Shown in pieces: positions 3,001 to 27,367 of a stretch of 57,064 nt of DNA. Each line of letters starts with the position of its first letter. The first letter of the stretch is position 1. The position numbers were made by a program, and so were the translations under genes. Origin of the DNA: Candidatus Lloydbacteria bacterium RIFCSPHIGHO2_02_FULL_50_18 (GTDB lineage: Bacteria > Patescibacteriota > Minisyncoccia > Phycocordibacterales > UBA6899); NCBI GenBank assembly GCA_001821395.1, contig MHLM01000010.1, positions 1 to 57,064 of the forward strand. Reading direction: 5' to 3'. The notes under the pieces were generated by a model. The model did not search any database and was not told the DNA's origin. It saw only the letters and a list, made by a program, of their open reading frames with translations.

Positions 3001-6000
3001 GCAGCATAGTCCGGCACATCAATGACATTGTTCCCATCACAGAGACCGGACGGCGTGACCGACACTTCACTTTCAGCCCCGACCGTGTCCGTGACCCACA
3101 TCTTGAGTTGTGCATCGCAGATCGTATTACCATTATTCGACAGCGCACCGATGGAGATCACTGCGTTCTCTCCGGGGGTGAACATGCTCTTGTTGAAATT
3201 GATCGCGAGCACGCCCCAATAAAAATCGTATTCGTCGACGTAGGACTCCCCTCCCTCTTCAATCTCAACATGCAATGTATATTTTCCGGGACGTACGTTG
3301 CCGTGCGCATCACGGAGCGATACTGACCACTCATTATTGTCGCCGTAGCTGATATCGTAGTCGACGGGAATATCTCCCGCAACAACATGCTTGAGCACCA
3401 CGCGTGAAACCGTGAATGGCTTCACTCCAAACACGTCGCGCACCCCCTGCAGCAAACTGTTCGCCTGACGTTTGTACTTGAAAGTAAACGAAGGCATCTG
3501 TCGAATAGAGAACTCACGATCTTTCGAAAGCAGCGTATCGACATGATCTTTTTCACGACCATCAACGTCGACATCGAGCTTACGATGCTCTCCCGGAATG
3601 ACGAACTCCTCCCCGCCCATAGAGATATTGGGGTGGAGCGCCCCCGGCGTGCGCGTCATCTGCGGCGAGATAAGCGGAATGAGTCCGTAATGCCCACTTC
3701 CGTCGGTGCTCGCTTTCATGCTCGGAACAATGGCGGCGAGGAATGTCCGGGATATATCGCGAGAAAGGGAGCGCACAAAAGACCCCGCTGCAAACACCCC
3801 CTGCTCGGGTGTGATGAATGTTTTTCCCGGATATGCACCCCGCGCTGCACACGTTGAAGAAGCCATCAATCCTCCTTGAGAATTAAAGACACCGACGGCA
3901 AAAGCCTCCGCTCCGGGAGCACAGAGCACCGCGACACCGACGGCATCACTCGGGGAAATGTATGCGGATGCAAATTCCGTCTCGGGGAGCGCGCTCGTAA
4001 GATCGTCGCGAGACACGTCGACAAGACCTATCGCAGTACTTGCATCCATGACGCGAACGGCATCAGCCAAAAGTCCGCCCCCGGCTGCGCAATGGTTGAG
4101 GTTCACGCTCGACCCTGCTCTCCGTCCGTCAATATTTTGGCGTGCCTCATTTCCGCACGCGATCGTGAGTGCGGTTGCATCATCCCCGATACCAATGACA
4201 CTTTTCCCGACCTGAAAACCGTAGAGGTCTTCCATCGTAGCGGGATAGAGCGACGCTGATAAGGACTGTGCATTCGTTCCGAGTACGGCGATCATTCCCT
4301 GCGTTCCCGTGAGTGAGATACTGTCGGAAAGAGTGACTCCTCGCATGACGATAGACCCTTCGACCGGGTCAAGGATCGCGGGACCATCGGGAAGATCGAG
4401 CTCTGCATGAGTGACCTCTCCACCCGTTGTACCAAGTGCAAGTTCGCGTTCACCCCCGATACCGGGTATCACGAAATCATCGCCCAGATACCCCGTCGGA
4501 ACGAACGTAGCGTTCGCACCGGGCGCTTCGATGGAAGCGGTGATCGGACCGTCTGCGGATACGACGGTACCCGGCTTCATTCCGTCAAAAAGCGCACTTT
4601 CTCCGTATTTGAGGACAACTTCCGGTTTGCCGGGAACGCTGACGCGCACATGGTCATCGAGTGCTATGACATGAAGCGTCATGTCCGACTGACTACCCCC
4701 GAAAATGAGACCGCGCGGCGCGGGGAGAGCACTGCGGAACGGCGCAGCGGGATCAGAACGCGACGTCGTCGTTGCATAACCGTAATACATCGCGATCGTT
4801 GTTGATGTCCCCAATCCTTTTTCGTTCACCCGAACCCATGCCGAACCGGAGCGTGTCGTACTGTCAAAGCGAGATACCCAATATGGCAGCTCGGTTCCAC
4901 TCTCTTCATCGACGAAGCGAATGTCACTTCCGTCGCTCGCAATATGCTTCCAAAAATCAGGAGAAGCATCGTCAAGTGAAATAGGGACGGCAAATGTACC
5001 CGTAGCGGTCACGTTGCTATTGTCGATGGAGATGTGCGTGCGATAATTCCACGAACCATCCCACTCTGCCCTCACCAATCCGTATGCGCCCGACTGTGCA
5101 GCAGCCTCGACAAAAAAATCTCCGCGACCGTTCAACGGTACGGCGATGTCAGCGCGGAAGTACGCGGTAGCCCCAGGCTGGATCACCACCGAGTCAGCAA
5201 GATTCGCGATGGGAGCGATAACTGAGGGAATGATGTCCGGAGGCAGCTGGTTCAACAACAGGTCTATTGCTTTTGCAAAAAGCCCCTCAGTGTCCGAGAT
5301 CGCACCCGGCAGAAGTGCTTCATCTTCCCATCCGTCACGATATTCAGTACCTTCAGTGAGCCCGACGCGTGCACCGGCAGTGATACAGTTCGTGCGATCA
5401 TCATTGAGCCGATCACACGAGCGCACTTCATCGCTTGTGGCGCAGTGAAATGCCGTCGATGATGTTCCCACGGTCCAACCCGTATCACAAAAATATCCGA
5501 CATCATCGTACCGAAGCTGCCCCACCTTGTAGGGAACATTGTGCACGAATCGGGAAAGCGCACGCACACTTGCTCCTTCTGTCGGGAAATGAAACTGGAG
5601 CCGAACCACCTGCGGATCAGGACTCTCGTTGGTCACATTCACATAGGTACGACCTTCACCAAGTGCATCATAGATATTCTTGTCGGTCTTCACCGAAAGT
5701 ATCGCACCCTCGTACTCTTGTGCATTAACGAAAGCGAGTGCTTCGCCGTCAGGGAGCGTCAGCTGATCACGACGTGCCTTTCGCGCCTCGGCATCTTTAG
5801 CCGCGAGGGCGCTGCGCACGTTCATTCCCGAAAGAGCAACTTCCTCGGGTGACGCATCGACGATCGCATCGTTCGCGTATCGCGCATTGATCCAAATGCC
5901 GTCGACATACGCGGATGCATCAGCATCGCTGGTGCGGTCATATTCAACGACAACCTTGAGGTCAGTCAGATCCTCCCAATCGCCAATATCCGAAAGTTCA

Positions 6001-7759: not shown

Positions 7760-7767
7760 CTAAAAAC

Positions 7768-7798
7768 AAACGCCATCCGGAACGGACGGCGTTTTTTT
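7768..7798 (+). terminator. Rho-independent terminator after the 7415..7759 gene
   Basis: GC-rich hairpin aacgccatccgg aac ggacggcgtt followed by TTTTTTT, 9 nt after the TGA at 7757-7759. Confidence 0.55.
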
Positions 7799-7912
7799 AT
7801 CCACATTTTTCAAACCCTACACCACACCGATCTCTTTAACGTGGGCATTCTTCATTAGAAAAACCTGCACATTAAAACATCCACAAAATCAGTACTACGC
7901 GTAGTAAAATTT

Positions 7913-7982
7913 CCAAATTGAGGTGCACCACAAGAGAACTTCATTTTTCTAAAACGGATTACCGTTAAGAAAAATTGGTCGC
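7913..7982. repeat. Intergenic repeat module A, copy 1 (contains the AACGG-ATTA-CCGTT hairpin); second copy at 17087..17151
   Basis: About 65 bp, ~85% identical to 17087..17151 (tgcaccac...acttcatttttctaa[a/g]acgg..taccgttaagaaaaattggtcgc). The stem ACGG/CCGT is conserved and the loop differs (atta vs ggta). Confidence 0.5.
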
Positions 7983-8060
7983 GATGCGAGGCAAAACAAG
8001 AGCACAAAAGTAAACTACGATAAAAGCTTTCACAATTTGGATGCGATTCGGCAAGTGCGC

Positions 8061-8162
8061 AATTTGGGATGAGCTGCGAGGCGACAAGGGGTGCGATGTC
8101 CGAGTGGACATACGTTGAGTATGTTCACCGGACTCGATCCCGCAGACAAAAAAGCAGATCGC
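8061..8162. repeat. Intergenic repeat module B, copy 1 (15-bp-stem hairpin GTCCGAGTGGACATAC/GTATGTTCACCGGAC); second copy at 17423..17523
   Basis: About 100 bp, >90% identical to 17423..17523 (gggatgagctgcgaggcgacaagggg.gcgatgtccgagtggacatac.ttgagtatgttcaccggactcg.tcc.cgcag...aagcagatcgc). Lies in non-coding DNA between convergent genes. Confidence 0.55.
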
Positions 8163-8178
8163 ACAAATTGCGTGCTTG

Positions 8179-9708: not shown

Positions 9709-10224
9709 CTAGGTGGCGGAATCTACCCGCTCAACATGCATGCGCATCTTGTTTGCACTGTGACCCTTGAGCGGCAAATGAAGGACAAGGACACCGTCCT
9801 TTACTTTCGCTTGTGCGGCAGCTGCATCGACTTCTTGAGGAAGAATGATCTGTCTGAAAAATTTTCCCCATGCGCATTCTTCAAGAGTGAACCCGTCATG
9901 CTCTTCATCTTTGGATTGTACGCCCTGATTGATCGGTAGACTGCCTTCTCCCATGTGCGGCATAAGGTCCTCAGGCCGACGTGAGGTACCCTGGATCGTG
10001 ATGACATCATTGTCCCCTTCGATCGACACATCAATATCCTTGATCTCCGTTCCCGGCACCTGGGCATAGATCGTGATCTCAGTATCACCTTGTTCTACGT
10101 CGACCGGAAGCTGTGTCACGCCGGAAGGAATTTCCGACTTCGCAGGAAGATTAGCCGAGGAAACAGCATGGTCCTCCGAAACTCCGATTCCCTTCCCTTT
10201 GAGCTTTTGTAAAAAAGAACTCAT
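9709..10224 (-). CDS. Hsp20/alpha-crystallin family small heat-shock protein
   Basis: The alpha-crystallin core WGKFFRQIILPQEVD...AKVKDGVLVLHLPL is diagnostic of small HSPs. 171 aa. Confidence 0.85.
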   Translation of the reverse strand: MSSFLQKLKGKGIGVSEDHAVSSANLPAKSEIPSGVTQLPVDVEQGDTEITIYAQVPGTEIKDIDVSIEGDNDVITIQGTSRRPEDLMPHMGEGSLPINQGVQSKDEEHDGFTLEECAWGKFFRQIILPQEVDAAAAQAKVKDGVLVLHLPLKGHSANKMRMHVERVDSAT

Positions 10225-10410
10225 ATGATCAAAAAGTACAATTAACTAGTAACCCCAGCCTCCCTAAAACAAATTTCTAAAAGTTGTTCGGGCGAACATT
10301 TTTTATCAGAAAAAAATGTTTTAGCCCAAAATATTTACCACGGTAGAGTTAGATACATTATACGTGAGTTTACGAATGATGTGCAATGCATATGTGAACA
10401 AGAAGTGGAT

Positions 10411-10603
10411 ACCGCTCGGGTAATAACTTTTCGGAGCATATTTGCCCGCTGAGAGCGGTCGGGCAAAACCATCCTCAATATGAATGCCGCTTGCAAGGCC
10501 TAGCGGACCAAGCCATTCATCTGCAGGGGCAACTTTGTTTTCTTAAAAGCGTAGCGAATGAGAAATACAAGAAGTACCCTTGTGGCGCTCCGAAAGTCTT
10601 ACT
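10411..10603. repeat. Intergenic repeat D, copy 1 (candidate structured element); second copy at 23466..23671
   Basis: A ~120-bp core (CCGCTT..GCCATTC.TCTGC.GGGGC.ACTTTGTTTTCTTA...AG.GAAT.AGAAA.ACAAGAAGTACCC.TGTGGC.CTCC.AAAGT) is ~85% identical to 23555..23665. It carries the internal hairpin tttgcccgctgagagcggtcgggcaaa. Both copies sit immediately upstream of minus-strand genes. Confidence 0.5.
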
Positions 10604-10654
10604 TTCGCGTTCAGAGAAAATGCTTTGATCTTCACCCTATGAAGAAATAGATTT

Positions 10655-10690
10655 GTAGTATAAAAAAGGCGCTGTCTATACAGCGCCTTC
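10655..10690 (-). terminator. Rho-independent terminator downstream of the PmbA-like gene
   Basis: Hairpin aggcgctgt ctata cagcgcct (10667-10689), with the T-run on the minus strand (plus-strand aaaaaa at 10661-10666), 14 nt after the stop at 10703. Confidence 0.55.
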
Positions 10691-10702
10691 AAACATAACT
10701 AC

Positions 10703-12046
10703 CTAATCCCCTGCCACCATCATTTCATCGATCAAGCAGCTCGGGGCATTCGCTCCATAAGGATTATCGGAACAATCATCAGCCGGGATCATGTTCCGGA
10801 ACATCGCAAGCAAGTTCCCGGCAATGGTCACCTTATTCACCGCACGAACGATCTCCCCGTGCTCGATGAGAAAGCCTTCCGCTCCCACTGAATATGCTCC
10901 GGTCGCGATATTTGTTCCTCGACCCATGAGATCGGTGACGAGGAAACCCCGATCGATCTTGCGAATGAGCTCATCCAATGAATTCATCGAAGGACAGAGG
11001 AGCAGATTGAGTGCGCCCGATGCGTGCCCCGTTGATGAATGTAGACCAAGCTTTGAGGCGGACTCGATCGAGGTTGCCCACATCATGAGTCTTCCTTGGT
11101 CGGACAGCGTCCACGGCGTGGTCTTTACGCAATCGTCGTCAAAGAGCTCCGATCCTAGTCGACGCGGCAGATGCGGCTGCTCGATGATGCGCACGTCATC
11201 ACGGAAAATACGTGATCCGAGATGATCAAGCAAAAATGTCTCTTTCTGGTAGACACGTTCGCCACTAATGGCACCAAAGAACGCACCCAGCAGTCGCGGA
11301 GAAACTCGTTTATCGAAGAGCACTGGCATCGCTTCCGTTTTGATAGAACGCGCACCAAGCTGCTTCACTGCATACTCCCCTGCACGACGCGCACACTCCT
11401 CGTCTCCCATGAGATCGGCACAGTGGGTTGCCATATGCCAGTGCGATGACGATTTCATCTCGCCGGCTTTTTCTGCAATGACACTTGTGCTTTTTGAATA
11501 TTGCGTCGACGGTGAGACGACCGAGAAACCGTTCGACAAGAGTTGGACCGACATATCGCTTTGAAAACCAAAACTGGTTCCCTCGCTGCGGGCAATTCCC
11601 GGAAACGCACACGCACATCGGTCGAGCGCAAGCGCCCGCATCTTTAGCTCCTTCAGTGTCGGCGGCAGACTTCCGTCGCAACGATCCAGTTGTGCAATAC
11701 GCCCCGGAAGTTCCTCCACTCCACACGGCCATTCATCCGGCCGAGCGAGGCGAACATGTTTGTTCCCGCTCACCTGAAGGGCCGAAAGTACTGCTTCTTT
11801 TGCGGTACGCGCCAGATCATCGTTCTCGAACGAGGAACTGCTCGCATACCCGCGCCTATTTCCGACGATCGCCGTGACCATGAAACCCGCACTACTTGAA
11901 AATGCGACATCATCGAGCACACCATCACGCACGGTGACAGAACGTTCCGTCGATGTATCTACTGACACAACGGCGTCGGTTGCACCGGCACTCTTTGCAT
12001 GGCGCAGCAATTGCTTGCCGACACGCATCATCTCTTTTTGATCCAT
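10703..12046 (-). CDS. pmbA: PmbA/TldE-family metalloprotease (TldD partner)
   Basis: The sequence from MDQKEMMRVGKQLLRHAKSAGATDAVVSVDTSTERSVTVRDG onward matches PmbA. The ORF-track N-terminal extension (to 12160) is Arg-rich and overlaps tldD. The ATG at 12046 is preceded by GAGGGG, 10 nt after the tldD stop. Confidence 0.75.
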   Translation of the reverse strand: MDQKEMMRVGKQLLRHAKSAGATDAVVSVDTSTERSVTVRDGVLDDVAFSSSAGFMVTAIVGNRRGYASSSSFENDDLARTAKEAVLSALQVSGNKHVRLARPDEWPCGVEELPGRIAQLDRCDGSLPPTLKELKMRALALDRCACAFPGIARSEGTSFGFQSDMSVQLLSNGFSVVSPSTQYSKSTSVIAEKAGEMKSSSHWHMATHCADLMGDEECARRAGEYAVKQLGARSIKTEAMPVLFDKRVSPRLLGAFFGAISGERVYQKETFLLDHLGSRIFRDDVRIIEQPHLPRRLGSELFDDDCVKTTPWTLSDQGRLMMWATSIESASKLGLHSSTGHASGALNLLLCPSMNSLDELIRKIDRGFLVTDLMGRGTNIATGAYSVGAEGFLIEHGEIVRAVNKVTIAGNLLAMFRNMIPADDCSDNPYGANAPSCLIDEMMVAGD

Positions 12047-12057
12047 GATATCCCCTC

Positions 12058-13500
12058 TTATTCCGGTGATGTTTCTGTTCCGCCGACGGTCACTCCGCCG
12101 GAAAGTCGCAATGTCGGTTGGCCAATACCGACCGGCACGCTCTGCCCACCCTTGCCGCATGTTCCTGCGCCGCCAAGCCTGCTATCGTTTCCGACGAGGT
12201 CGACGTGCGTGAGCACTGTGGCACAGTTCCCAATGAGCGTTGCGCCAACGACAGGTGTCGTCAACTTCCCGTCCTCGATCTTGTAGGCCAGCTCACAACT
12301 GAACACAAATTGTCCCGTGACCGGGTCAACTTGTCCTCCGCCAAAAGATGGCATGTACAGCCCGCGTTTTGTTGCGGCAATGATGTCCTCGGGTGGCGTC
12401 GCGCCTCCCACCATCAATGTATTCCGCATGCGCACCTGCGTACGATATTCATACGACTCGCGGCGACCGCTACCGGTCGGACGCATCGCAAGCAATCTCG
12501 CGCTCTGTCTGTCATGCATGAAGCCGACCAACATGCCGTCTTTGATAAGTACGGTGCGTTCTGTTGGTGTCCCCTCATCATCGATGGTGAGTGACCCCCT
12601 CTCGTCTGCCAGCGTGCCATCATCAACGACCGTCACCAGCTCGCTTCCCACGCGCTTCCCGATAAGGTCCGCAAAGACCGTCGTCTTCCGCCATACACAG
12701 TCCGCTTCAAGCCCATGACCGATCGCTTCATGAAGCAATACCCCGGCCCAACCCGGACCCAGGACGACAGGCATGACGCCCGAAGGACACGGTCCCGCGC
12801 GAAGCATTTCTTTTGCATTCTTGATCGCGCGATCGACCTCAGGTTTCCAAATTCCGGGAGTGATGAGCCTTGCATAATCGTACCGCCCGCCGATACTTGC
12901 GGATGCACCTTCGCGCTTCCCACCTTCGGCACATTGCGCCGTGACGGACATACTCGCCATAGGGCGAACATCGCTCGCGATAGTTCCGTCCGCACGCACA
13001 ATGAGCACACTAACGAGACTTGCTGCAAAATATGCATCAACGTTCGTCACCGCTTTATCTTTTCGCGCATAACGGTCGATCGCACGGAGTACCTTCACCC
13101 GTGCCGCAAGCGACAGCGAAGTGAGCTTACCGGCATAACGAGCTTTCGGTTGCGGAAACTCTTCCCGCACCTCGTACCGCTGCTTTGCCGTTGCGATCTC
13201 GCGCAGCTCCTTGCCCGCGCGAATGATCGCCCGTGCAGTGATCGTATTACCGTGCGCATAGAGCACTGATTCTCCGTTCACGCGGCGCAGTCCAAATCCT
13301 TGGTCCACGCTTCGCGATGGAGATTCAATACGCCCGTCGTCAAGCGAAACACTTTCACTTTCCGAGCGCTCCAAATAGAGCTCTCCGTCTTCCGCACCCA
13401 AGAGTGCGCGCGTTACGAGCGCATTCATGCCCGCCGCATCAAGGCCAAGTAGCCTCCCGAAATAGCGGACGGGGTCGATCGCGTTATCAGTATTTTTCAC
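12058..13500 (-). CDS. tldD: TldD-family metalloprotease
   Basis: MKNTDNAIDPVRYFGRLLGLDAAGMNALVTRALLGAEDGELYLERSESESVSLDDGRIE... is a typical TldD sequence. GTG start at 13500 with AAGGAGA 5 nt upstream. Confidence 0.8.
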   Translation of the reverse strand: MKNTDNAIDPVRYFGRLLGLDAAGMNALVTRALLGAEDGELYLERSESESVSLDDGRIESPSRSVDQGFGLRRVNGESVLYAHGNTITARAIIRAGKELREIATAKQRYEVREEFPQPKARYAGKLTSLSLAARVKVLRAIDRYARKDKAVTNVDAYFAASLVSVLIVRADGTIASDVRPMASMSVTAQCAEGGKREGASASIGGRYDYARLITPGIWKPEVDRAIKNAKEMLRAGPCPSGVMPVVLGPGWAGVLLHEAIGHGLEADCVWRKTTVFADLIGKRVGSELVTVVDDGTLADERGSLTIDDEGTPTERTVLIKDGMLVGFMHDRQSARLLAMRPTGSGRRESYEYRTQVRMRNTLMVGGATPPEDIIAATKRGLYMPSFGGGQVDPVTGQFVFSCELAYKIEDGKLTTPVVGATLIGNCATVLTHVDLVGNDSRLGGAGTCGKGGQSVPVGIGQPTLRLSGGVTVGGTETSPE

Positions 13501-16949: not shown

Positions 16950-17086
16950 ATAGCGTCATTTTATGGCGAAAGTCGAGTCCAGTAAAGGTCTTTCACGCAC
17001 TGATCGTGCTAAATTTTAAAAAAATTAACCAAACGTTATACCATCCACAATTAACCATTTCCGAATAAGTTTCCAAGGAGAGACCT

Positions 17087-17151
17087 TTCAAGGCACCACC
17101 GGGAGTACTTCATTTTTCTAAGACGGGGTACCGTTAAGAAAAATTGGTCGC
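17087..17151. repeat. Intergenic repeat module A, copy 2
   Basis: See copy 1 at 7913..7982. Confidence 0.5.
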
Positions 17152-17222
17152 CAAGGACTCACCTTTGAAGCTTTCAGCATCAGAAAGAGTTAATTGGGGA
17201 TGGTATTTTTTTTTCGCTAGCC

Positions 17223-17279
17223 GATGACAAATATGCAGCTGTGGGCAAAGTCCCACTACTGCGTATTTGCTTTGGCGTC
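17223..17279. repeat. Hairpin module C, copy 1 (conserved flanks gatgacaaat / ttgctttggcgtc; stem atatgcagctgtggg/cccactactgcgtat; loop caaagt)
   Basis: Paired with 17544..17600. The flanks and the caaagtcc segment are conserved, while the stem sequences are entirely different but remain complementary in both copies. This is compensatory variation. Confidence 0.5.
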
Positions 17280-17422
17280 TCCAGTAAAAACTTTCATAAT
17301 TGGGATGCACCACGGGGGCACTTCCAATTTCATACTCCCTTCGGTCGGTGAAATTTAGGTCGAAGGACGAGGTGAAATCTAATCGTACTTTTTTATAGCA
17401 GAAGTACTCGAAAAAATACGAT

Positions 17423-17523
17423 ATTCGGGATGAGCTGCGAGGCGACAAGGGGGCGATGTCCGAGTGGACATACTTTGAGTATGTTCACCGGACTCGCTCC
17501 CCGCAGTCAACAAAGCAGATCGC
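17423..17523. repeat. Intergenic repeat module B, copy 2
   Basis: See copy 1 at 8061..8162. Locus 2 carries an extra ~115-bp insertion upstream that is homologous to 27238..27289. Confidence 0.55.
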
Positions 17524-17543
17524 CCGAATTTCGTATTTTAACC

Positions 17544-17600
17544 AATGACAAATTCATAGCATCAGACAAAGTCCAGATGCTATGAATTTGCTTTGGCGTC
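17544..17600. repeat. Hairpin module C, copy 2 (stem attcatagcatc/gatgctatgaat, 12 bp perfect)
   Basis: See 17223..17279. Confidence 0.5.
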
Positions 17601-17727
17601 GTGATGCTTTCAAATTGAGATGAAGAACGAGTTGAAATACAGATTTTGCTAGCAAGCCTTACTCCTGTAAGGTGAGGCGCAAAATCTGTATTTCAACGAA
17701 GTAATTCGCTCAATTTGGAAACATCAC
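17601..17727. repeat. About 127-bp imperfect palindrome with a perfect 18-bp inner stem (ttgaaatacagattttgc / gcaaaatctgtatttcaa) overlapping the stop codon of 17724..18788
   Basis: Outer arms gtgatgctttcaaattgag... / ...ctcaatttggaaacatcac are imperfect. The inner arms at 17631-17648 and 17678-17695 are perfect. No U-tract follows on either strand. Confidence 0.5.
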
Positions 17728-18788
17728 CCGAAATAGAAGAAGAGGATCAATAGTCCCACAATGATCGCAAACAATAACCCGATCGCCACTGCCGCCAAAC
17801 GCGAGATACCTCGCGCACCGCGCACCGCTCCCCCTCCGCGTGTACCCACCACTCCCGCTAACTGTCGACGCACATAGAGGCGGATCAAGACGTAGAGCAC
17901 GAGAATGAATGTGAAGAGTCCTCCAACGACCGGCCCGATGATGTTCATGGGGAGTATCCAGAATGATGTCACCGAGGAAATGGTCTGATTCCCTCCGTCA
18001 ACGAGAGGGATGACGAGCGCGACGACCGCCTCGAAGTGTCCGATCACAAATCCTTCAGGCTGCCACTTTACCTCATACTTTCCCGTACTATTCGGGGAAA
18101 TAACGTATGCGGTCTCATTGACGAGCAGTGATTCGACCTTCTTTCCGAACATATCGGTGATGTCGATCAAGCCTTGCGGTCGAGAAAGCGTATTCCCTTT
18201 ATTCTCCGCTTCAACGGTAAAGATCACGTTTGGAGAGCCGTAAATGAGCTTGTCGGTGAGGAATGCACGCATGCGTGTGTCTTCTTTGACATCACCCGCC
18301 ATTTGAAAATGAAGAATAGCCCCAATGTCAAACCCGACGGCAGAACCCTCCTTGAGATCGGGCGGTTTCTGCGTCAGAAACAATCCCGCAAGGTGTGAGC
18401 CGGGGCGCGCGTCAGCGGGAAATTTAACGGTAAAATGCAGCGTCGCACTACCGCCGGCAGGAACATCGAGCATTGATTCTGAATACGTGATCCACGACGC
18501 GAGCTCGGTCGCATTTGCATCGGCACCCTCCACGTAAACCGGCTGATGATCTAGAGCGATGGTGGCAATGTTCCGGGCAACGGGGTATAGCACAGTCCCC
18601 TGGTCGCCGCGATTTTCGACACGCATCGAATATGAGTGTTCCGAACTCGGCTCAACCTTATCTTCGATCGTCGTCGGGGAAAGATTAAAACTCACCTTAT
18701 TTTGCGCGAAGACCGCAAACGGCGTCATCAGCATGGCGGAACATGCGACAACAACAGCACCTCTTAATATCGTATTAGATCTCAACAT
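17724..18788 (-). CDS. Surface protein with signal peptide, beta-rich ectodomain, C-terminal TM helix and Arg/Gly-rich tail (DUF916/DUF3324-like architecture, assigned from memory)
   Basis: Signal peptide MLRSNTILRGAVVVACSAMLMTPFAVFA and C-terminal FWILPMNIIGPVVGGLFTFILVLYVLIRLYVRRQ. Paralogous to 24432..25817 and 25838..27109, which share the FWI(I/M)PW...TM motif. Confidence 0.5.
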   Translation of the reverse strand: MLRSNTILRGAVVVACSAMLMTPFAVFAQNKVSFNLSPTTIEDKVEPSSEHSYSMRVENRGDQGTVLYPVARNIATIALDHQPVYVEGADANATELASWITYSESMLDVPAGGSATLHFTVKFPADARPGSHLAGLFLTQKPPDLKEGSAVGFDIGAILHFQMAGDVKEDTRMRAFLTDKLIYGSPNVIFTVEAENKGNTLSRPQGLIDITDMFGKKVESLLVNETAYVISPNSTGKYEVKWQPEGFVIGHFEAVVALVIPLVDGGNQTISSVTSFWILPMNIIGPVVGGLFTFILVLYVLIRLYVRRQLAGVVGTRGGGAVRGARGISRLAAVAIGLLFAIIVGLLILFFYFG

Positions 18789-18949
18789 AAAAATTTAGAA
18801 CCTCTCCCTCCCGGCGAGGCGTGTATGCTATGTGTATAAATTTTCCTTTTTCTCCACTCTGACACTAGAAGCTATTGTACCCAATCATTATGGAAGTGGA
18901 AAGGAATAACCCTGCATATGTGTCTTTTGTAGCGATCTTTTGCACAAAT

Positions 18950-18990
18950 ATACAAAAGTACCACCGATCTATCGTGATCGATGGTACTTT
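18950..18990 (-). terminator. Possible terminator after paralog 1
   Basis: Hairpin agtaccaccgatc tatcgt gatcgatggtact (one mismatch) followed on the minus strand by a short CTTTTG run, 45 nt after the stop. Confidence 0.35.
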
Positions 18991-19033
18991 CCACTACGGA
19001 ATCAAAGCAGGCGATACTATCTGACGAACTCGC

Positions 19034-20185
19034 CTAGAAGATCGGAGTACAGACGTAGGTGATAACGTTGTTGTAGTCGACAGCGGCTTCCTGGAGTGCG
19101 GTGACCTGTACGCGATATCCGACACGTGTCTTTCCGATGTTGTCAGTTGTTCCATCCGCAACAGCATTATGATAGAGCACGGTTCGTGTCGACGTCGCGG
19201 TAAGTCCGGCATAGAGCGACGTACCAAAGGCATCTGTTGGAAGCGATGAATCTTCAGATGTCACACCCATATGTCCATAGGTCTCGGTAACTCCAAGAGT
19301 TCCAGCGGGTGTCGTCCATGCAACAGGGGCACCAGTCACCGCTTCATTGTCCTTAAACGCATTAATGTTCGCACCATTTGCTGAGGTAAGATCCTGGTTT
19401 TCAGTGATCGTCACAGAGAAGCCATTGAATGCATTCGTCGCTACGGTGATGTCTTGCGCTGCTATTGAGGATGTACCGACAGAGATGACACCGAACCCAA
19501 TAGCAGTTGCTGATGTTGAGGTCGACGTCGTATCACCATTTATCATAGAACTTGAAGCAACGCCGGCAATCGTAAAGGTCAAATTAGTGTCGACGATGGC
19601 GGTCATAGTGACGGAACTAATGATCGCGATGCGTGTATCTGCGGCATCAGTCATGGTGCCGTTTATACGAACAACATAGGATCCATTCGTACCATTGACG
19701 ACATGCGCATTGGAGATATTCACGAGAATAGCTCCTGCGGCGATAGAATCACCAGTACATGTAGTAAATTCTATATAATCGGGATTGGTGCCTTGATTTG
19801 AGGCATATATCTCATCTGTACCCCCCGCACACGCACCGATATTTGCAACCTGAGTAAGACCACCACCGGTACGTGAAATATGCACATCGGTACCGAGGGC
19901 CACCGCAGAAACATCAAAAGTATTCCCGGTCGGATCAAACGTGATGCGTGTTGTGGATCCGGTAGAACCACCGATGGGATTTACGGTCGTGAATCGCACC
20001 ATATAGTTAGTAGAAACCGATGGCGCTGATGAGGACGCGGTTGCGCTCACAGACAGCAACTGCGACGCAGATGCAGTATTAAAAAGAAACGGGAGGCCGA
20101 GTGCCCATGAAAGGGTTGCGACGACGAGGGTCGTGGCGAGCCACTTCATACGAATTAAAGAACGAAATGCGCTTGTGTAGTCCAT
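19034..20185 (-). CDS. Secreted Ser/Thr-rich beta-rich protein, paralog 1 of a tandem triplet (conserved N-terminus ASQLxSVSATASSSAPS..TNYMVRFTTVN and C-terminus ITYVCTPIF)
   Basis: About 60% identical to 20608..21765 and 21805..22980 over the full length. Signal peptide present and 4 conserved Cys. No recognised domain; the WxL-like idea is unconfirmed because no W-x-L motifs were seen. Confidence 0.6.
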   Translation of the reverse strand: MDYTSAFRSLIRMKWLATTLVVATLSWALGLPFLFNTASASQLLSVSATASSSAPSVSTNYMVRFTTVNPIGGSTGSTTRITFDPTGNTFDVSAVALGTDVHISRTGGGLTQVANIGACAGGTDEIYASNQGTNPDYIEFTTCTGDSIAAGAILVNISNAHVVNGTNGSYVVRINGTMTDAADTRIAIISSVTMTAIVDTNLTFTIAGVASSSMINGDTTSTSTSATAIGFGVISVGTSSIAAQDITVATNAFNGFSVTITENQDLTSANGANINAFKDNEAVTGAPVAWTTPAGTLGVTETYGHMGVTSEDSSLPTDAFGTSLYAGLTATSTRTVLYHNAVADGTTDNIGKTRVGYRVQVTALQEAAVDYNNVITYVCTPIF

Positions 20186-20390
20186 AGTGTGAACTTTTAT
20201 TTTGATAACGAATAACGGCTTGCAAAATTGGAGAATTTGCAGCGGGAGAAAGTGAAGCGTCTATGTTCTCATCGTATGCATATTCTTTGTGGGAAGAATA
20301 TGCGGATCGCCTAGAACACTTCTGTTATTCGCGAATGGGATGTTTTGTGTTGTTCGCTGTTTGGTTAAACATCGAACTCACCTGTCGTTA

Positions 20391-20523
20391 ATTATACAGT
20401 ACCTGTGGAAAAACAGTGCGCTAACGGTGGATAACTGTGGATAACTATTAACGAGAACCATACTTCCACTGTAACAGAGGGGTGTCGGACCACAGCATTA
20501 ATTCAACTTTTGTTATCCACAGG
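20391..20523 (-). promoter_or_regulatory. Promoter of paralog 1: a -10 TATAAT (plus-strand attata at 20391-20396) directly abutting a conserved ~45-bp element with three direct TGTGGAWAA-like repeats, plus an inverted TTATCCACA at 20513-20521
   Basis: The element cctgtggaaaaa.agtg....aac.gtg.ata.ctgtggataact (20402-20446) is near-identical to 23362-23406 and lies at the same distance from a TATAAT in both copies. The -35 is poor, which suggests activator dependence. Confidence 0.5.
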
Positions 20524-20547
20524 AGTGGACAACTTCCCCACAACAAA

Positions 20548-20592
20548 CAAAATACCCCGCCATATTGAAATAGGGCGGGGTATTTTATTTCT
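20548..20592 (-). terminator. Rho-independent terminator after paralog 2
   Basis: Hairpin aataccccgcc atattgaaatag ggcggggtatt, with a T-rich run on the minus strand, 16 nt after the stop at 20608. Confidence 0.6.
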
Positions 20593-20607
20593 TCTAGTAA
20601 ACTAAGA

Positions 20608-21765
20608 CTAGAAGGTAGATGTGCAGACGTATGTGATCTGGTTCGTGTAGTCTGATGCAGCCTCCTGCAATGCCGACACTTGAATACGGAATCCAACCCG
20701 AGTTTTACCAATATTCGCCGTGGTACCATCAGCAGGTCCAGTGTGAAAGAGGATTGTACGCGTCGATGTCGACGAAAGCCCTGCATAAAGCTGTGAGCCA
20801 AAGTCGTCACCGGGAAGCGATACGTCTTCCGAAGTAATACCCATATGCCCGTAAGTATTTGGACTACCGATCGTTCCCACTGGTGCTGTCCAAGCTGTCG
20901 GCGAGCCGGTCACTGCATTCCCATCCTTAAATGCATTGATCGTTGCGCCATTTGCCGAAGTGAGATCCTGATTTTCGGTCACCGTAACACTAAAGCCGTT
21001 CAACGCATTAGTTGAGACCGAAACATCCTGTGCTGCAACAGAAGAGGTTCCAACAGAGAGTGTCCCGAATCCAATTGCGGTCGCAGTACTCGACGTCGAA
21101 GTCGTATCGCCGTTCACGGGGGAACTCGACGCTACTGTGGCGATAGTAAACGTTAGGTTCGTATCGACGATTCCCGTCATGGCAACCTGATTAATGATCG
21201 CAACGCGTGTATCAGCGGAGTCAGCCATCGTACCATTAATCCGTACGACATACGATCCGGATGCAGAAGGATTCACGGCATGTGCACCAGCTATATTTAC
21301 CGTTATAGTACCGGCAGCAATGATATCCCCGGGGCACGTTAAAAGCTCTACATAGTCGGATGCACCTGCAACGACTTGAGACACATACATTTCGCTCACG
21401 GCTCCCGAACACGATCCGAATGCAGCAACCTGCGTAAGACCTCCAGTTAAACGAGAAACTGTTACATTGCCGTTCGTAAGCGCAGTGAGATCAAAGAGTC
21501 CGCCTTGGGGATCAAACGTGATACGCGTTGTCGAAGCCGTAACTGCCTGCCCTATTGCATTCACTGTCGTGAATCGCACCATATAGTTTGTCGCAATGGA
21601 AGGCGCTGACGACGATGCGGTTGCGCTCACAGAATTTAGCTGTGATGCGTAAGTCGGAGTGAATAGCTGGAATGCCGGAAATATCCAACCGACCATTGCG
21701 ATGATGATCGCGGCAGAGATGACTCTCGAGCTCATGAGATGCAATGATCGGTTGTAATAGTTCAC
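20608..21765 (-). CDS. Secreted Ser/Thr-rich protein, paralog 2 of the triplet
   Basis: See paralog 1. Only 39 bp separate it from paralog 3 upstream, so the two are probably co-transcribed. Confidence 0.6.
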   Translation of the reverse strand: MNYYNRSLHLMSSRVISAAIIIAMVGWIFPAFQLFTPTYASQLNSVSATASSSAPSIATNYMVRFTTVNAIGQAVTASTTRITFDPQGGLFDLTALTNGNVTVSRLTGGLTQVAAFGSCSGAVSEMYVSQVVAGASDYVELLTCPGDIIAAGTITVNIAGAHAVNPSASGSYVVRINGTMADSADTRVAIINQVAMTGIVDTNLTFTIATVASSSPVNGDTTSTSSTATAIGFGTLSVGTSSVAAQDVSVSTNALNGFSVTVTENQDLTSANGATINAFKDGNAVTGSPTAWTAPVGTIGSPNTYGHMGITSEDVSLPGDDFGSQLYAGLSSTSTRTILFHTGPADGTTANIGKTRVGFRIQVSALQEAASDYTNQITYVCTSTF

Positions 21766-21804
21766 AGGTAATTCTTATTGGTTGAATAAATAGACACGAG
21801 AAAG

Positions 21805-22980
21805 TTAGAAGATCGGCGTGCAAACGTACGTGATCTGATTGGTATAGTCTGTCGCTGCCTCCTGAAGTGCGCTGATCTGTACGCGGAATCCAACGCGCGT
21901 TGCACCAACATTTGCAGTCGTTCCGTCTGCGGGTCCGGTGTGATAGAGAACGGTACGCGTCGATGTCGCAGTCAGTCCGGCATAGAGCTGGGTACCAAAT
22001 TCATCAGCATCACCGACAAGAGTGGCGTCCTCTGAGGTAATACCCATATGACCATACGTATTTGGACTACCGATCGTCCCTGTTGGATCGGCACCCCAAG
22101 CTGTCGGTGAACCAGTCACCGCATTCCCATCCCTAAATGCGTTGATCGTTGCACCATTCGCCGAGGTAAGGTCTTGATTCTCGGTCACGGTGACGCTAAA
22201 ACCATTCTTCGCATTCGTTGAGACCGAAATGTCCTGTGCCCCGATAGAAGAGGTTCCAACGGAGAGGGTCCCGAATGGAATAGAGGTTGCCGTAGAGAGC
22301 ACATTGGTTGTGTCACCGTTCACCATAGAGCTTGAGGCAACAAGGCCGATCGAGAAGCTGAGGCTACTGTCGACCGAAGCGGTCATCGTGACGGTACTCA
22401 CGATCGCTACGCGGGTATCCCCTGTATCCGTCATCGTGCCGCCGATGCGCACGACATAGGAGCCGGTTACTGCGGGATTCGTGACGTGTGCATTCCTGAA
22501 AGTTACCGTTATAGCACCCGCTGCGATAACGTCCGTATCGCAAGTTTTAAATTCGACATAGTCAGCCGGCTCTGTTTTTCCAATGCGATCTACATAAATT
22601 TGACTAGCGCCACCGTTACACGCCGCAAGATCAGCAACTTGCGTCAACTCGGCCCCCGTAATTACAATATCGGCAGTGCTCGTTGCCAAAGAAGTAAGAT
22701 CGAAGGAATTTCCCGTAGGATCAAAAGTAATACGTGTTGTTGAAGCAAAAGTTGCTGCAGCACTACCAATTGCATTCGCAGTGGTAAATACGACTGCATA
22801 ATTCGTGGAGAGCGATGGTGCGGACGAAGACGCCGTCGCAGAGACCGACGCAAGCTGTGCTGCCGATGAAGTATTAATAAGAAACGGAATACCGACTGCC
22901 CAACCGATAGTGGCGGTGAGAAGTACGATTCCGAGCCCTTTCAATCGGGCAAGATATCGAAACATGTGTGTGTAGCTCAT
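21805..22980 (-). CDS. Secreted Ser/Thr-rich protein, paralog 3 of the triplet
   Basis: See paralog 1. Ends ITYVCTPIF. Confidence 0.6.
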   Translation of the reverse strand: MSYTHMFRYLARLKGLGIVLLTATIGWAVGIPFLINTSSAAQLASVSATASSSAPSLSTNYAVVFTTANAIGSAAATFASTTRITFDPTGNSFDLTSLATSTADIVITGAELTQVADLAACNGGASQIYVDRIGKTEPADYVEFKTCDTDVIAAGAITVTFRNAHVTNPAVTGSYVVRIGGTMTDTGDTRVAIVSTVTMTASVDSSLSFSIGLVASSSMVNGDTTNVLSTATSIPFGTLSVGTSSIGAQDISVSTNAKNGFSVTVTENQDLTSANGATINAFRDGNAVTGSPTAWGADPTGTIGSPNTYGHMGITSEDATLVGDADEFGTQLYAGLTATSTRTVLYHTGPADGTTANVGATRVGFRVQISALQEAATDYTNQITYVCTPIF

Positions 22981-23350
22981 AAAGAACTAGTGGGATAAAA
23001 AACATCAAGTTGACGAAACTATGCGCAACGATCCACGAATTCTTGCTCCAACGTTCAGAAACTTGTTGTGACACGCACCTGCATGTCCTCGTTTTCCTCC
23101 GTCAGCGCACGCAGTCTGTGGATCATTATTCACAAGTTTTGCAACTTGGTGGGATGAATAATGGCAAACTGAACATTCCAACAAAAAATGCGCTATTCGT
23201 TCTTCTTCATCGGCGAGTGCCGAGAATAAGCCGAGACATTAAAAAACTTGTGGATCGTTTTTCAATGCAACAATTGGGATGGTGATTCCTCCTGTACCGT
23301 CGTCCTCGGAGTGTGGATATCCGAGAATACATAGAATGCACCTAGTATTT

Positions 23351-23406
23351 ATTATAACCTGCCTGTGGAAAAAGAGTGGACAAACTGTGAATAGCTGTGG
23401 ATAACT
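23351..23406 (-). promoter_or_regulatory. Promoter of paralog 3: a -10 TATAAT (plus-strand attata at 23351-23356) abutting a second copy of the TGTGGAWAA-repeat element (23362-23406)
   Basis: Same architecture as 20391..20446. Further TGTGGAT copies occur at 23115-23124, 23249-23258 and 23312-23321 between this promoter and the start codon. Confidence 0.5.
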
Positions 23407-23465
23407 TTCGCTCCAGATTTCACTATTTGAAAAACACATCATCAATTTTTCCAGCAAAAAATTGT

Positions 23466-23671
23466 GATTCCGCTCGGCGGGTCTGCTTCACCAAGAGGCG
23501 AAGACCATGCCAGACCCAGCTGCCTCCGCGAGGTTTTTCAAACAGTGAAACCCTCCGCTTCACAGAGTACATCGACCGAGCCATTCGTCTGCGGGGGCGA
23601 CTTTGTTTTCTTATGAACGAAGTGAATTAGAAAAACAAGAAGTACCCCTGTGGCACTCCCAAAAGTTTATC
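23466..23671. repeat. Intergenic repeat D, copy 2
   Basis: See 10411..10603. A flanking direct repeat c.ctccatagggagg occurs twice (23680-23692 and 23737-23749). Confidence 0.5.
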
Positions 23672-23775
23672 CTCGCTCCATAGGGAGGAACAACACCGTC
23701 GCGGTCCGTAGCCCCTCGAACAGTAATACCTCACTCCATAGGGAGGTCATTATTCATTCACTTATACCGGCCCTC

Positions 23776-24054
23776 CTATCGAAAAAGAGAGTCGTGTGAT
23801 CCCAAGTCAACGAGGAGAAGTACGAGTATACCCTCGTGCTTCTGATACACGAGCAGTATGTCATTCCCAACGTGGCACTCGCGATAATTCTTTAGATCAC
23901 CAGAGAGTTGATGGTCACGATACCCGGTTGAAAGCTTTTCTCCGACGGCAAGTGCGTCAATCACGACATCGAGATCATGCTGAACAAAATCCTTGTGCCG
24001 CAAAATCCGCTTGTATGCTTTTCGATATGCTTTTGTGGAGCGAACAATATACAT
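23776..24054 (-). CDS. relE: RelE/YafQ-family type II toxin (mRNA interferase)
   Basis: HQLSGDLKNYRECHVGNDILLVYQKHEGILVLLLVDLGSH matches the YafQ/RelE C-terminal catalytic region. 92 aa, 2 bp downstream of the antitoxin gene. Confidence 0.75.
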   Translation of the reverse strand: MYIVRSTKAYRKAYKRILRHKDFVQHDLDVVIDALAVGEKLSTGYRDHQLSGDLKNYRECHVGNDILLVYQKHEGILVLLLVDLGSHDSLFR

Positions 24055-24056
24055 AC

Positions 24057-24332
24057 CTAGCGATTGCCAAGAATGTCATCGTGCAATTCTTTTGCGGTAC
24101 GGTATGAGGGACCATGCTTGAGTGCATACTCTGCCTCCTTGATCAGCTGTCGTTTCTTCTTCGTCGGCCAGTAGTCGGCACTGACGACGGGAAACGGTAT
24201 CGCCTGTTTATTGACGACTTGGGTAAGATACAATTTCACCCCGGAGGACATATCGAGTCCCATTGCACTAAATGTTTTTTGTGCCAACTCTTTTGTTTTT
24301 TTATCAATGCGGATTTGTAGCGTGGTATTCAT
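24057..24332 (-). CDS. relB: RelB/DinJ-family antitoxin
   Basis: MNTTLQIRIDKKTKELAQKTFSAMGLDMSSGVKLYLTQVV is typical of DinJ/RelB. The ORF-track start at 24338 is TTG; the ATG at 24332 is preferred. Confidence 0.75.
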   Translation of the reverse strand: MNTTLQIRIDKKTKELAQKTFSAMGLDMSSGVKLYLTQVVNKQAIPFPVVSADYWPTKKKRQLIKEAEYALKHGPSYRTAKELHDDILGNR

Positions 24333-24359
24333 GGGCAAAGTGTACCCTCCCTCTGTTTG

Positions 24360-24395
24360 AGTGTCAATACAATGTAATTACACTATAAGTTCAGT
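24360..24395 (-). promoter_or_regulatory. Putative relBE promoter/operator with a perfect 10-bp palindrome TGTAATTACA (24373-24382)
   Basis: The palindrome lies 41 nt upstream of the relB ATG and overlaps TTGACA-like and TACACT-like hexamers. This is the expected geometry for an autoregulated TA operator. Confidence 0.4.
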
Positions 24396-24431
24396 TCAAA
24401 CTCCTCAACATTATGGGCAAGAGCCCTCCCC

Positions 24432-27109: not shown

Positions 27110-27237
27110 ACTTCTTATTATAGAGTACGTTTGCGCAGATAAGCTGGGGACAACTCTAGAGTTCAACAAATAAACCCCAACTTCTTTGTTGCGGTGCCCA
27201 TGCGACTCGGTCAACGTATATGAATACGTCTTCTCCC

Positions 27238-27289
27238 CTACGGGGACTTCCAAATTCATACTCCCCATGGTCGTTGAATTTCTGGTCGC
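27238..27289. repeat. Intergenic repeat module E (homologous to 17309..17367)
   Basis: ctacggggacttccaaattcatactcc.catggtcg.tgaatttc.ggtcg is ~80% identical to the segment inserted in the 17-kb repeat locus. Confidence 0.4.
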
Positions 27290-27367
27290 TCGTCGCTTTT
27301 CCCGCGCCTCGCATCTGGGGTTATTTGATGAACTCCTACGTTTGATAGATGTTTGCATACGGAATAT

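Follow-up and report, generated by a model that had tools for sequence, protein, structure and literature searches.

What kind of element is the repeat that occupies two spacers of a Parcubacteria contig, each of them upstream of a minus-strand gene and the two genes unrelated in function? Parcubacteria genomes are very small and gene-dense, and they are thought to be poor in repetitive DNA. The contig analysed here, 57,064 nucleotides of Candidatus Lloydbacteria bacterium RIFCSPHIGHO2_02_FULL_50_18 (the window), carries one copy (w1) between pmbA (10703-12160, minus strand) and hsp20 (9709-10224, minus strand) and a second (w2), at a constant offset of 13068 nt, between a RelB/YafQ pair (23776-24338) and the first of three unannotated paralogues, paralogue 3 (21805-22980, minus strand). 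A sequence-only reading had described this repeat, here called repeat D, as a core of about 120 bp shared at about 85% identity, and had taken it for a mobile or sRNA-type element and not for a gene-specific riboswitch.

The similarity of w1 and w2 is real and far beyond chance, because direct counting gives 76 of 90 identical positions (84%) over 10506-10595 against 23574-23663, the best of 200,000 random pairs of 100-nt windows reaches 44% identity, and each of two 20-nt core motifs occurs exactly twice in the window against 0.00-0.02 expected. A repeat search of the window delimited the pair as 10506-10608 and 23574-23676 (repeat family D9, 81% identical ungapped), and 62 of 74 positions agree with copy 2 over 10521-10594. 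The figure of about 85% thus holds for the core and was somewhat generous for the full 10487-10603, where 87 of 117 positions (74%) agree. Outside the core the identity falls sharply, to 26% in 10604-10700 and to 16% in 10411-10486 on the 5' side. The local hairpins quoted from that side are present (10441-10467 in copy 1, 23480-23517 in copy 2) and are further modules of the mosaic described below. A similar stretch of about 120 bp does exist, but the part found across genomes covers some 65-74 nt, and the rest is a lineage-specific 5' linker and hairpin. This extra sequence of about 35 nt is common only to w1, w2 and the metagenome contig L024, which is the closest relative and has a 1-nt gap inside this extension, so no reading frame is conserved there. 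The two window copies, 81% identical and neither closer to the other than to L024, are old, unlike those of a recently active REPIN population.

Nineteen distinct close copies of this unit, which we call type A, were collected, two from the window and 17 from Parcubacteria genomes and metagenomes, one of the latter contigs being labelled Saccharibacteria. The exact two-block core pattern was found at eight loci in a collection with one genome per species, all of them CPR MAGs (Taylorbacteria, two Kaiserbacteria, Zambryskiibacteriota, 'Parcubacteria', two unnamed and one labelled Saccharibacteria), and a slightly looser pattern added about 10 further metagenome contigs. Each subtype is low-copy, as a representative genome has a single match to the strict type-A pattern. 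A viral, phage or plasmid origin was rejected: matches to the pattern among viral contigs (IMG/VR) were coding-sequence coincidences with no genuine unit among them, and BLAST against phage and plasmid records returned no match.

The type-A unit is about 65 nt long and consists of a 5' GCGAC, an A/U-rich imperfect hairpin and a 3' motif, GAAGTACCCTTGTGGTG, which is strongly conserved. In the 19-copy alignment (A3) the shared unit reads (G)CGAC, then the hairpin UUUGUUUUCUUA-[12-16 variable nt]-UUAGAAAACAAGAA, then GUACCC(U/C/G)UGUGG(U/C)(G/A). In the hairpin a stem of 8 bp is followed by an internal loop, CUUA/UUAG, that contains a U-U mismatch, then usually by a tandem G-A/A-G, and finally by a GNA loop capped by 2 bp. 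When A3 was turned into a covariance model (R1), this recovered further units, in which identical flanks enclose different hairpin sequences. Within the Lloydbacteria lineage CUGCAGGGG pairs with CCCUUGUGG, lengthening the hairpin of copy 1 to 10521-10585; in both w1 and w2 the 5' flank CUGCRGGGG pairs with CCCYUGUGG to give this extended hairpin.

The fold itself is conserved by compensatory change. A hairpin model of 16 pairs, read from A3, is paired in 97% of cells over the 19 type-A copies, and its four apical pairs, which are not fixed by the search pattern, carry compensatory changes in 13 cells, a number reached by 0 of 500 shuffles. RNAalifold independently predicted 14 pairs, 13 of them identical to the 16-pair reading. 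Over 29 full-length members (alignment A6) 94% of cells are paired, against 38-59% in controls with slid partners, and compensatory changes occur in 10 of the 16 pairs (40 cells, again reached by 0 of 500 shuffles), figures to be read with the caveat that A6 was fitted to the covariance model. Amid these covarying pairs several non-canonical features are conserved, namely the U-U mismatch, the tandem G-A/A-G (17 of 29 members), a 2-nt AG bulge and mostly GNA triloops. We rejected the idea that the 3' motif forms another small hairpin (GUACC..GGUGC), which is paired in 86% of cells but covaries no more than shuffles do.

The hairpin is at the same time weak. As RNA its core folds at about -8 kcal/mol on the GCGAC strand against -3 to -4 on the complement, and as DNA at about -3 kcal/mol on either strand; fold-energy z-scores of the hairpin, from -0.1 to -1.6, are not significant. 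The hairpin is therefore conserved for evolutionary and not for thermodynamic reasons, which points to a binding partner. The GCGAC strand is favoured only by the tandem G-A pairs and the RNA energies; a strand call from counts of G-U against A-C proved uninformative (3:0 in type A, 6:6 in the broad family).

A broader covariance model (R2), run over the 57-kb window with filters off, found six members of three hairpin types on shared flanks, two of type A on the plus strand and two each of types B and E on the minus strand (Table 1). The spacers 7760-8178 and 16950-17723 are mosaics of such units and other repeated hairpin modules, and in the second of them, 775 nt long, at least six modules can be counted. 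One module, the hairpin GAGTCCGGTGAACATAC..GTATGTCCACTCGGAC followed by a linker-like motif CACCCCTTGTCGCCTCGCAGC, stands in the same spacers as the type-B and type-E units, as does another repeated hairpin, GACGCCAAAGCAAAT..ATTTGTCAT. JGI gene calls lie over this second spacer and over the mosaic spacer that holds copy 1, and their products end after 30-31 residues at an in-frame stop; these ORFs are spurious and are caused by the repeats. In several genomes the composite blocks are edged by a short motif that is nearly palindromic, (A)TACCGCTC(TC)GGGTA, which may be another module or a boundary signal.

Table 1. Repeat units, neighbouring signals and recurring motifs, with positions in the window unless another contig is named.
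Feature	Position	Strand	Evidence and remarks
Type-A unit, copy 1	10521..10594	+	Covariance model 72.6 bits (R1), 68.4 bits, E=1e-16 (R2); fold; alignment A3
Layout of copy 1	core 10532-10575; 3' motif 10574-10588	+	5' CTGCAGGGG-GCAAC; hairpin core; 3' motif GTACCCTTGTGGCGC
Type-A unit, copy 2	23589..23662	+	Covariance model 82.7 bits (R1), 80.0 bits, E=8e-20 (R2); 84% against copy 1
Layout of copy 2	core 23600-23643; 3' motif 23642-23656	+	Hairpin core; 3' motif GTACCCCTGTGGCAC
Lineage-specific 5' extension, copy 1	10487..10520	+	Small hairpin CCGCTTGCAAGGCCTAGCGG, then degenerate linker ACCAAGCCATTCATCTG...; alignments A1, A2, A9
Matching 5' extension, copy 2	23555-23588	+	
Composite mosaic block, edges approximate	10412..10650	+	Alignment A4; absent from relatives
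Content of block, in order	hairpins 10441-10467, 10487-10506	+	CCGCTCGGG motif; two hairpins; type-A unit
Content of block, 3' part	10591-10607	+	Hairpin CGAAAGTCTTACTTTCG; then CTTCACCCTATGAAG
Type-B unit	7919..7990	-	R2 59.6 bits, E=3e-14; flanks GCGAC ... GAAGTTCTCTTGTGGTGC, hairpin AUUUUUCUUAACGGUAAUCCGUUUUAGAAAAAU; 3' spacer of cohesin-domain gene
Type-B unit, second copy	17087..17159	-	R2 39.9 bits, E=7e-9; repeat family D17
Type-E unit, CGAC-CUAAAUUUCA..UGAAAUUGGAAGUGCCCCCGUGGUGC	17301..17371	-	R2 52.5 bits, E=3e-12; repeat family D19
Degenerate type-E unit	27227..27297	-	R2 25.2 bits, E=7.5e-5; 71 nt past stop of 1777-aa gene
Further repeated module	8053-8141 and 17414-17501		
Further repeated module	17218-17279 and 17539-17600		
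JGI gene calls	10321-10635 and 17134-17488	-	L030 9590-9904 and 2737-3091
Motif (A)TACCGCTC(TC)GGGTA	10412-10420, 23471-23479		Also L024 ~3217-3226, L034 ~3990, L006 ~3405-3425
pmbA intrinsic terminator	10665..10690	-	Terminator scan; kept in all relatives; context, not part of the element
hsp20 sigma-70-like promoter, TGCACA-17-TATAAT	10357..10385	-	Promoter scan, 10/12 matches; kept in L034, L036, L037
TTATCCACA	7797-7805	+	
TTATCCACA	20436-20444	-	
TTATCCACA	20513-20521	+	
TTATCCACA	23396-23404	-	
TATCCAC	10405-10411	-	

Similar arrays occur elsewhere. Several loci hold from two to six or more units, with two each in L005, L012, L020 and L026. In the array of L006 two hairpin types alternate with an 18-nt linker, GTACCCTTGTGGTGCGAC, and a canonical terminator closes the array; the 3' end of an mscL-like gene runs into its first unit, so that the last codons (..CATLIS*) overlap it. 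Head-to-tail units are joined in general through this linker, which consists of the fused asymmetric flanks, and clusters are in direct orientation in L005, L006, L012, L026 and at 17087/17301 of the window, the one inverted pair being that of L020. The hairpin of the type-B unit in the cohesin-gene spacer recurs in the L006 array, whose type-B hairpin resembles the Lloydbacteria one, and types A, B, D and E are combined differently with other modules in L006, L026, L034 and the window spacers. One type-A unit is identical at 55 of 55 positions between a Zambryskiibacteriota MAG (L005 2790-2861) and the Saccharibacteria-labelled L006 (3330-3800, minus strand), which points either to mis-binning of the contig or to a horizontal transfer across distant CPR lineages.

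Evidence on the behaviour of the units also comes from close relatives, taken as contigs carrying graded PmbA homologues (L035 at 94% identity, L036 at 88%, L034 at 81% and L037 at 66%). The gene order tldD-pmbA-hsp20-cohesin is kept in these relatives; the spacers are not. In L036 and L037 the pmbA terminator leads almost directly to the hsp20 promoter and the whole block of about 225-240 nt is missing, in L034 other hairpins and modules stand in its place, and in L035 a different hairpin precedes the GTACCC motif. The dockerin-tldD spacer, empty in the window and in L037, holds in L034 a block of about 320 nt that includes an antisense A-like unit, and in L036 a type-E unit in sense orientation. 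The type-B unit after the cohesin gene differs in position between the window and L034 and is absent in L037. Units have thus been gained, lost and exchanged on a short evolutionary scale, while the genes and promoters on either side stayed the same. The empty sites differ by whole composite blocks of about 225-320 nt and not by single units, so that neither a target-site duplication nor the exact ends of an insertion could be defined from them.

Across all loci the units are intergenic, mostly lie just past gene 3' ends and take either orientation relative to their neighbours (about 50:50). About half stand in the sense orientation after a 3' end, about a third stand antisense just after one (at 2-113 nt, with one outlier at 352 nt), and four lie in divergent regions; in the spacers of tandem genes the 3' end upstream is usually closer to a unit than the 5' end that follows. 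The two window copies fit this arrangement, lying 108-113 nt downstream of the minus-strand 3' ends of pmbA (10703-) and yafQ (23776-) and 300-600 nt before the start of the next minus-strand gene. No promoter or terminator is common to the copies, upstream or downstream, and an all-against-all BLAST of flanking ORFs showed no gene family recurring beside them. Pfam searches of the window found no transposase or recombinase, none recurs beside the other copies, and no RAYT was seen in either place.

The mobile half of the sequence-only reading stands, since there are six members in the window, copies in many Parcubacteria and presence or absence between close relatives, all features of a dispersed, mobile-type element; the sRNA half is not supported, given the lack of a shared promoter or terminator and the even split of orientations. 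The explanation that we favour, and to which we attach about an even chance, is that repeat D is the type-A module of a REP/BIME- or BOX-like family of non-autonomous, modular intergenic repeats of Parcubacteria. The family exists, with a conserved fold, modular arrays, many copies and turnover between close relatives; its units would, we infer, spread as non-autonomous DNA in the manner of REP/BIME or BOX elements. The conserved flanks and the hairpin, folded on one strand and probably single-stranded, would be recognised by a protein that is encoded elsewhere and acts in trans. A fold-defined hairpin with short conserved flanks and head-to-tail stacking is the layout recognised by single-strand-specific enzymes, Y1/HUH transposases and integron integrases among them. 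Copies would survive selection only at harmless sites immediately behind gene 3' ends, hsp20 and the paralogue would be affected only incidentally, if at all, and a unit that happened to be transcribed would simply add a weak, protein-bindable hairpin to the RNA. Together with other hairpins the modules make up the mosaics that occupy the long spacers of the Lloydbacteria genome.

Among the closest parallels are the REP/BIME elements of Enterobacteria and Pseudomonas, where REPINs are mobilised by RAYT, a Y1 HUH transposase. Like these, the present units are short imperfect palindromes whose 5' foot carries a conserved motif; they are intergenic, lie mostly just past 3' ends in either orientation, lack coding capacity, form mosaics with conserved non-palindromic linkers, and differ in presence between related genomes. 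However, the REP hairpin is G+C-rich and stable, whereas that found here is A/U-rich and weak; the motif is GTAG there and GCGAC plus a 14-17-nt 3' motif here; REPINs are inverted doublets, while our clusters are mostly direct and head-to-tail; REPIN-RAYT systems have tens to hundreds of near-identical copies per genome, while here each subtype is low-copy, the copies are old and the six members in 57 kb are diverse; and the present unit, unlike REP, is almost unchanged across several Parcubacteria lineages. With BOX (boxA-boxB(n)-boxC of Streptococcus pneumoniae), Correia, RUP and ERIC elements the family shares a few module types in variable number and order, a predicted fold, an intergenic position the lack of a transposase of its own, and a mobilisation that may work in trans. 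It differs from them in that no terminal inverted repeats or target-site duplication is detectable here and in that its modules are single hairpins on one conserved asymmetric linker, and it probably has no sequence similarity to them; BOX is a pneumococcal family, and homology to boxA, boxB or boxC is not expected. The kind of element is known, that of interspersed palindromic mosaic repeats, while this family, its asymmetric linker and its occurrence in streamlined CPR genomes appear to be new. A literature search, motif strings included, returned no description of it.

Several features speak against a recently active selfish element, namely the low-copy subtypes, the old copies, the weak hairpin and the conservation across lineages. 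The lack of a transposase nearby and of a definable insertion junction also counts against the favoured reading, and the cross-order conservation of sequence and of non-canonical pairs could reflect a host function instead. The main competitor builds on this. According to it the unit would be a cis-acting RNA module, whose transcribed hairpin and single-stranded 3' motif bind a Parcubacteria protein for mRNA processing, stabilisation or localisation, and the family would be kept by selection and not by mobility. The non-canonical features kept while neighbouring pairs covary, the better RNA fold of the plus strand, and a cross-order sequence conservation exceeding that of decaying selfish copies are all consistent with such a module. 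So is the position of about half the units, in sense between stop codon and terminator, among them the four type-B and type-E units of the window and the L006 array. However, the other half are antisense to the only nearby transcription unit or lie in divergent promoter regions, and the upstream genes share no common function. Copy 1, moreover, lies outside the pmbA 3' UTR, because the pmbA terminator separates that gene from the block, and the L004 unit likewise stands just after a terminator. As units are also gained and lost between close relatives with the flanking genes unchanged, we regard a cis-acting RNA module as unlikely, if still worth serious attention.

A bolder proposal, which we hold only tentatively and consider rather unlikely, is that the asymmetric flanks (the 18-nt linker) and the fold-defined hairpin form the recognition site of an undiscovered enzyme system specific to Parcubacteria. 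Candidates for it are a recombinase or transposase specific for single strands and a protein that processes or binds RNA; hairpin 'cassettes' would be inserted, stacked and exchanged by it at the linkers. Two further known systems resemble the units in part. The attC sites of integrons and CALINs are likewise recognised by their fold, with a short basal helix, extrahelical bases, a second helix and a variable apex, and they form arrays in one orientation; here, in contrast, there are no R''/R' core sites, no gene cassettes between sites and no integrase nearby. An integron attC was in fact rejected, since R'' RYYYAAC and R' GTTRRRY are absent and the flanks read GCGAC and GTACCC/GTTCTC on either strand (compared by eye). 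The subterminal hairpins of IS200/IS605 elements and PATEs combine a hairpin with short conserved flanks in the layout of HUH cut sites and could in principle form head-to-tail copies, but the present units lack tnpA and tnpB as well as a left end paired with a right one, and cleavage or guide tetranucleotides could not be identified. If the proposed Parcubacteria enzyme system does exist, some of the most reduced bacterial genomes would harbour modular repeats of a new, site-specific kind.

Known RNA families offered no better account. Rfam returned no match at the gathering score anywhere in the window and nothing convincing at E<=10 in three spacers, where the sole match overlapping a type-A unit was CRISPR-DR43 (18.5 bits against a gathering score of 35, E=2.3). 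The sequence-only reading had found no match to tmRNA, SRP RNA, RNase P or 6S RNA, which the Rfam scan bears out, and a tRNA/tmRNA scan found neither in the window; its objection to a gene-specific riboswitch likewise holds. An independent plus-strand sRNA gene, a multi-hairpin RNA of about 200 nt present as two paralogous copies in the Lloydbacteria lineage, seems improbable to us. It would account for the multi-hairpin layout of about 230 nt that w1, w2 and L024 share, with conserved linkers and variable helices, and for the extended hairpin 10521-10585, in which one-sided changes preserve G-U and G-C pairing on the plus strand only. On the other hand, no conserved promoter precedes it and no terminator follows it, and a trans-acting sRNA gene was rejected more generally for want of a shared promoter or terminator bounding the copies. 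GTGGATA and CGCTCGG are motifs from the region upstream of the minus-strand promoters, in other genomes no more than 12-30 nt separate a unit from its neighbouring gene, no Rfam family applies, and the fold energies of the two 126-nt regions are not unusual (z = -1.1 and +0.3).

That the element regulates the genes downstream of it, as an operator, an upstream activating site or an RNA thermometer for hsp20 and paralogue 3, is in our judgement very improbable. The observation behind this idea, that both window copies lie upstream of minus-strand genes, one of them hsp20, is correct, but the position is incidental, as relatives keep hsp20 and its promoter without the element and elsewhere the element follows unrelated genes. 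Its distance upstream is 100-220 nt from the hsp20 -35 box and about 600 nt from paralogue 3, which puts it outside any 5' UTR; in the case of hsp20 this is because the promoter stands between element and gene. An hsp20 thermometer of the ROSE or fourU kind was rejected for the same position, for a folding strand opposite to the gene and for its absence in relatives with hsp20. The element is not known to match the CIRCE, HAIR or ROSE sequences, and by eye neither the CIRCE and HAIR operators nor parS fits. For the local genes the outcome is thus negative, in that the element is not a regulator of hsp20.

A remnant or small ORF of duplicated coding sequence is scarcely credible: eight of the first nine w1/w2 substitutions (10510-10555) do fall in one codon phase, and a plus frame PSHSSAGATLFS and a minus frame ENKVAPADEWLG are conserved with synonymous changes, but copy 1 has TAA and TGA in the plus frame, both copies share a TAA in the minus frame, start codons are lacking in every frame, a 1-nt indel interrupts the block in L024, the JGI call over the region contains an in-frame stop, and variation across the 19 copies follows hairpin pairing and not codons.

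Further candidates were rejected as well. An intrinsic terminator does not fit a stem that is A/U-rich with no T run after it, and separate canonical terminators lie nearby. Inspection by eye rejected a sigma-54 promoter, whose spacing is wrong by one, dif/Xer sites, whose spacer would be both palindromic and too long, a K-turn (no 3-nt bulge) and an IS91 CTTG/GTTC target (CTTG not conserved among variants), and found no fit to group II intron domain V, a tRNA-like acceptor end or a Shine-Dalgarno mimic.

The combination of nearly base-for-base conservation across lineages with reshuffling between close relatives implies an active mechanism, an enzyme or a host factor, that recognises the fold and the linker. 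The family explains the unusually long spacers of these genomes and may mark sites of genome rearrangement, and its covariance model could be used to mask or annotate regions now called as spurious ORFs.

Some further observations concern the neighbourhood of the repeats. The RelB antitoxin/YafQ toxin pair adjoins copy 2, and no link between it and the repeat was found. The three tandem paralogous genes (19034-22980) encode proteins of 383-391 aa without a Pfam match, and the 1777-aa gene contains an internal tandem duplication of 1755 nt with 74-84% identity (29027-32519). In L034 (1-820) an APH-family gene directly adjoins a 144-aa gene; the same place in the window (16950-24400) holds a mosaic spacer, a 354-aa gene, the three tandem paralogues, copy 2 and the toxin-antitoxin pair. 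This stretch is a variable segment with repeat clusters at its borders, so the repeats may mark rearrangement points. Finally, the DnaA-box consensus TTATCCACA has four perfect motifs in the window against about 0.4 expected; counted with one-mismatch matches it is not enriched overall (15 against 10.8 expected). With one-mismatch variants included, its occurrences cluster just upstream of minus-strand -10 boxes, as with TGTATAAT near 20385, which suggests a possible transcription-factor or DnaA site in these minus-strand promoters.
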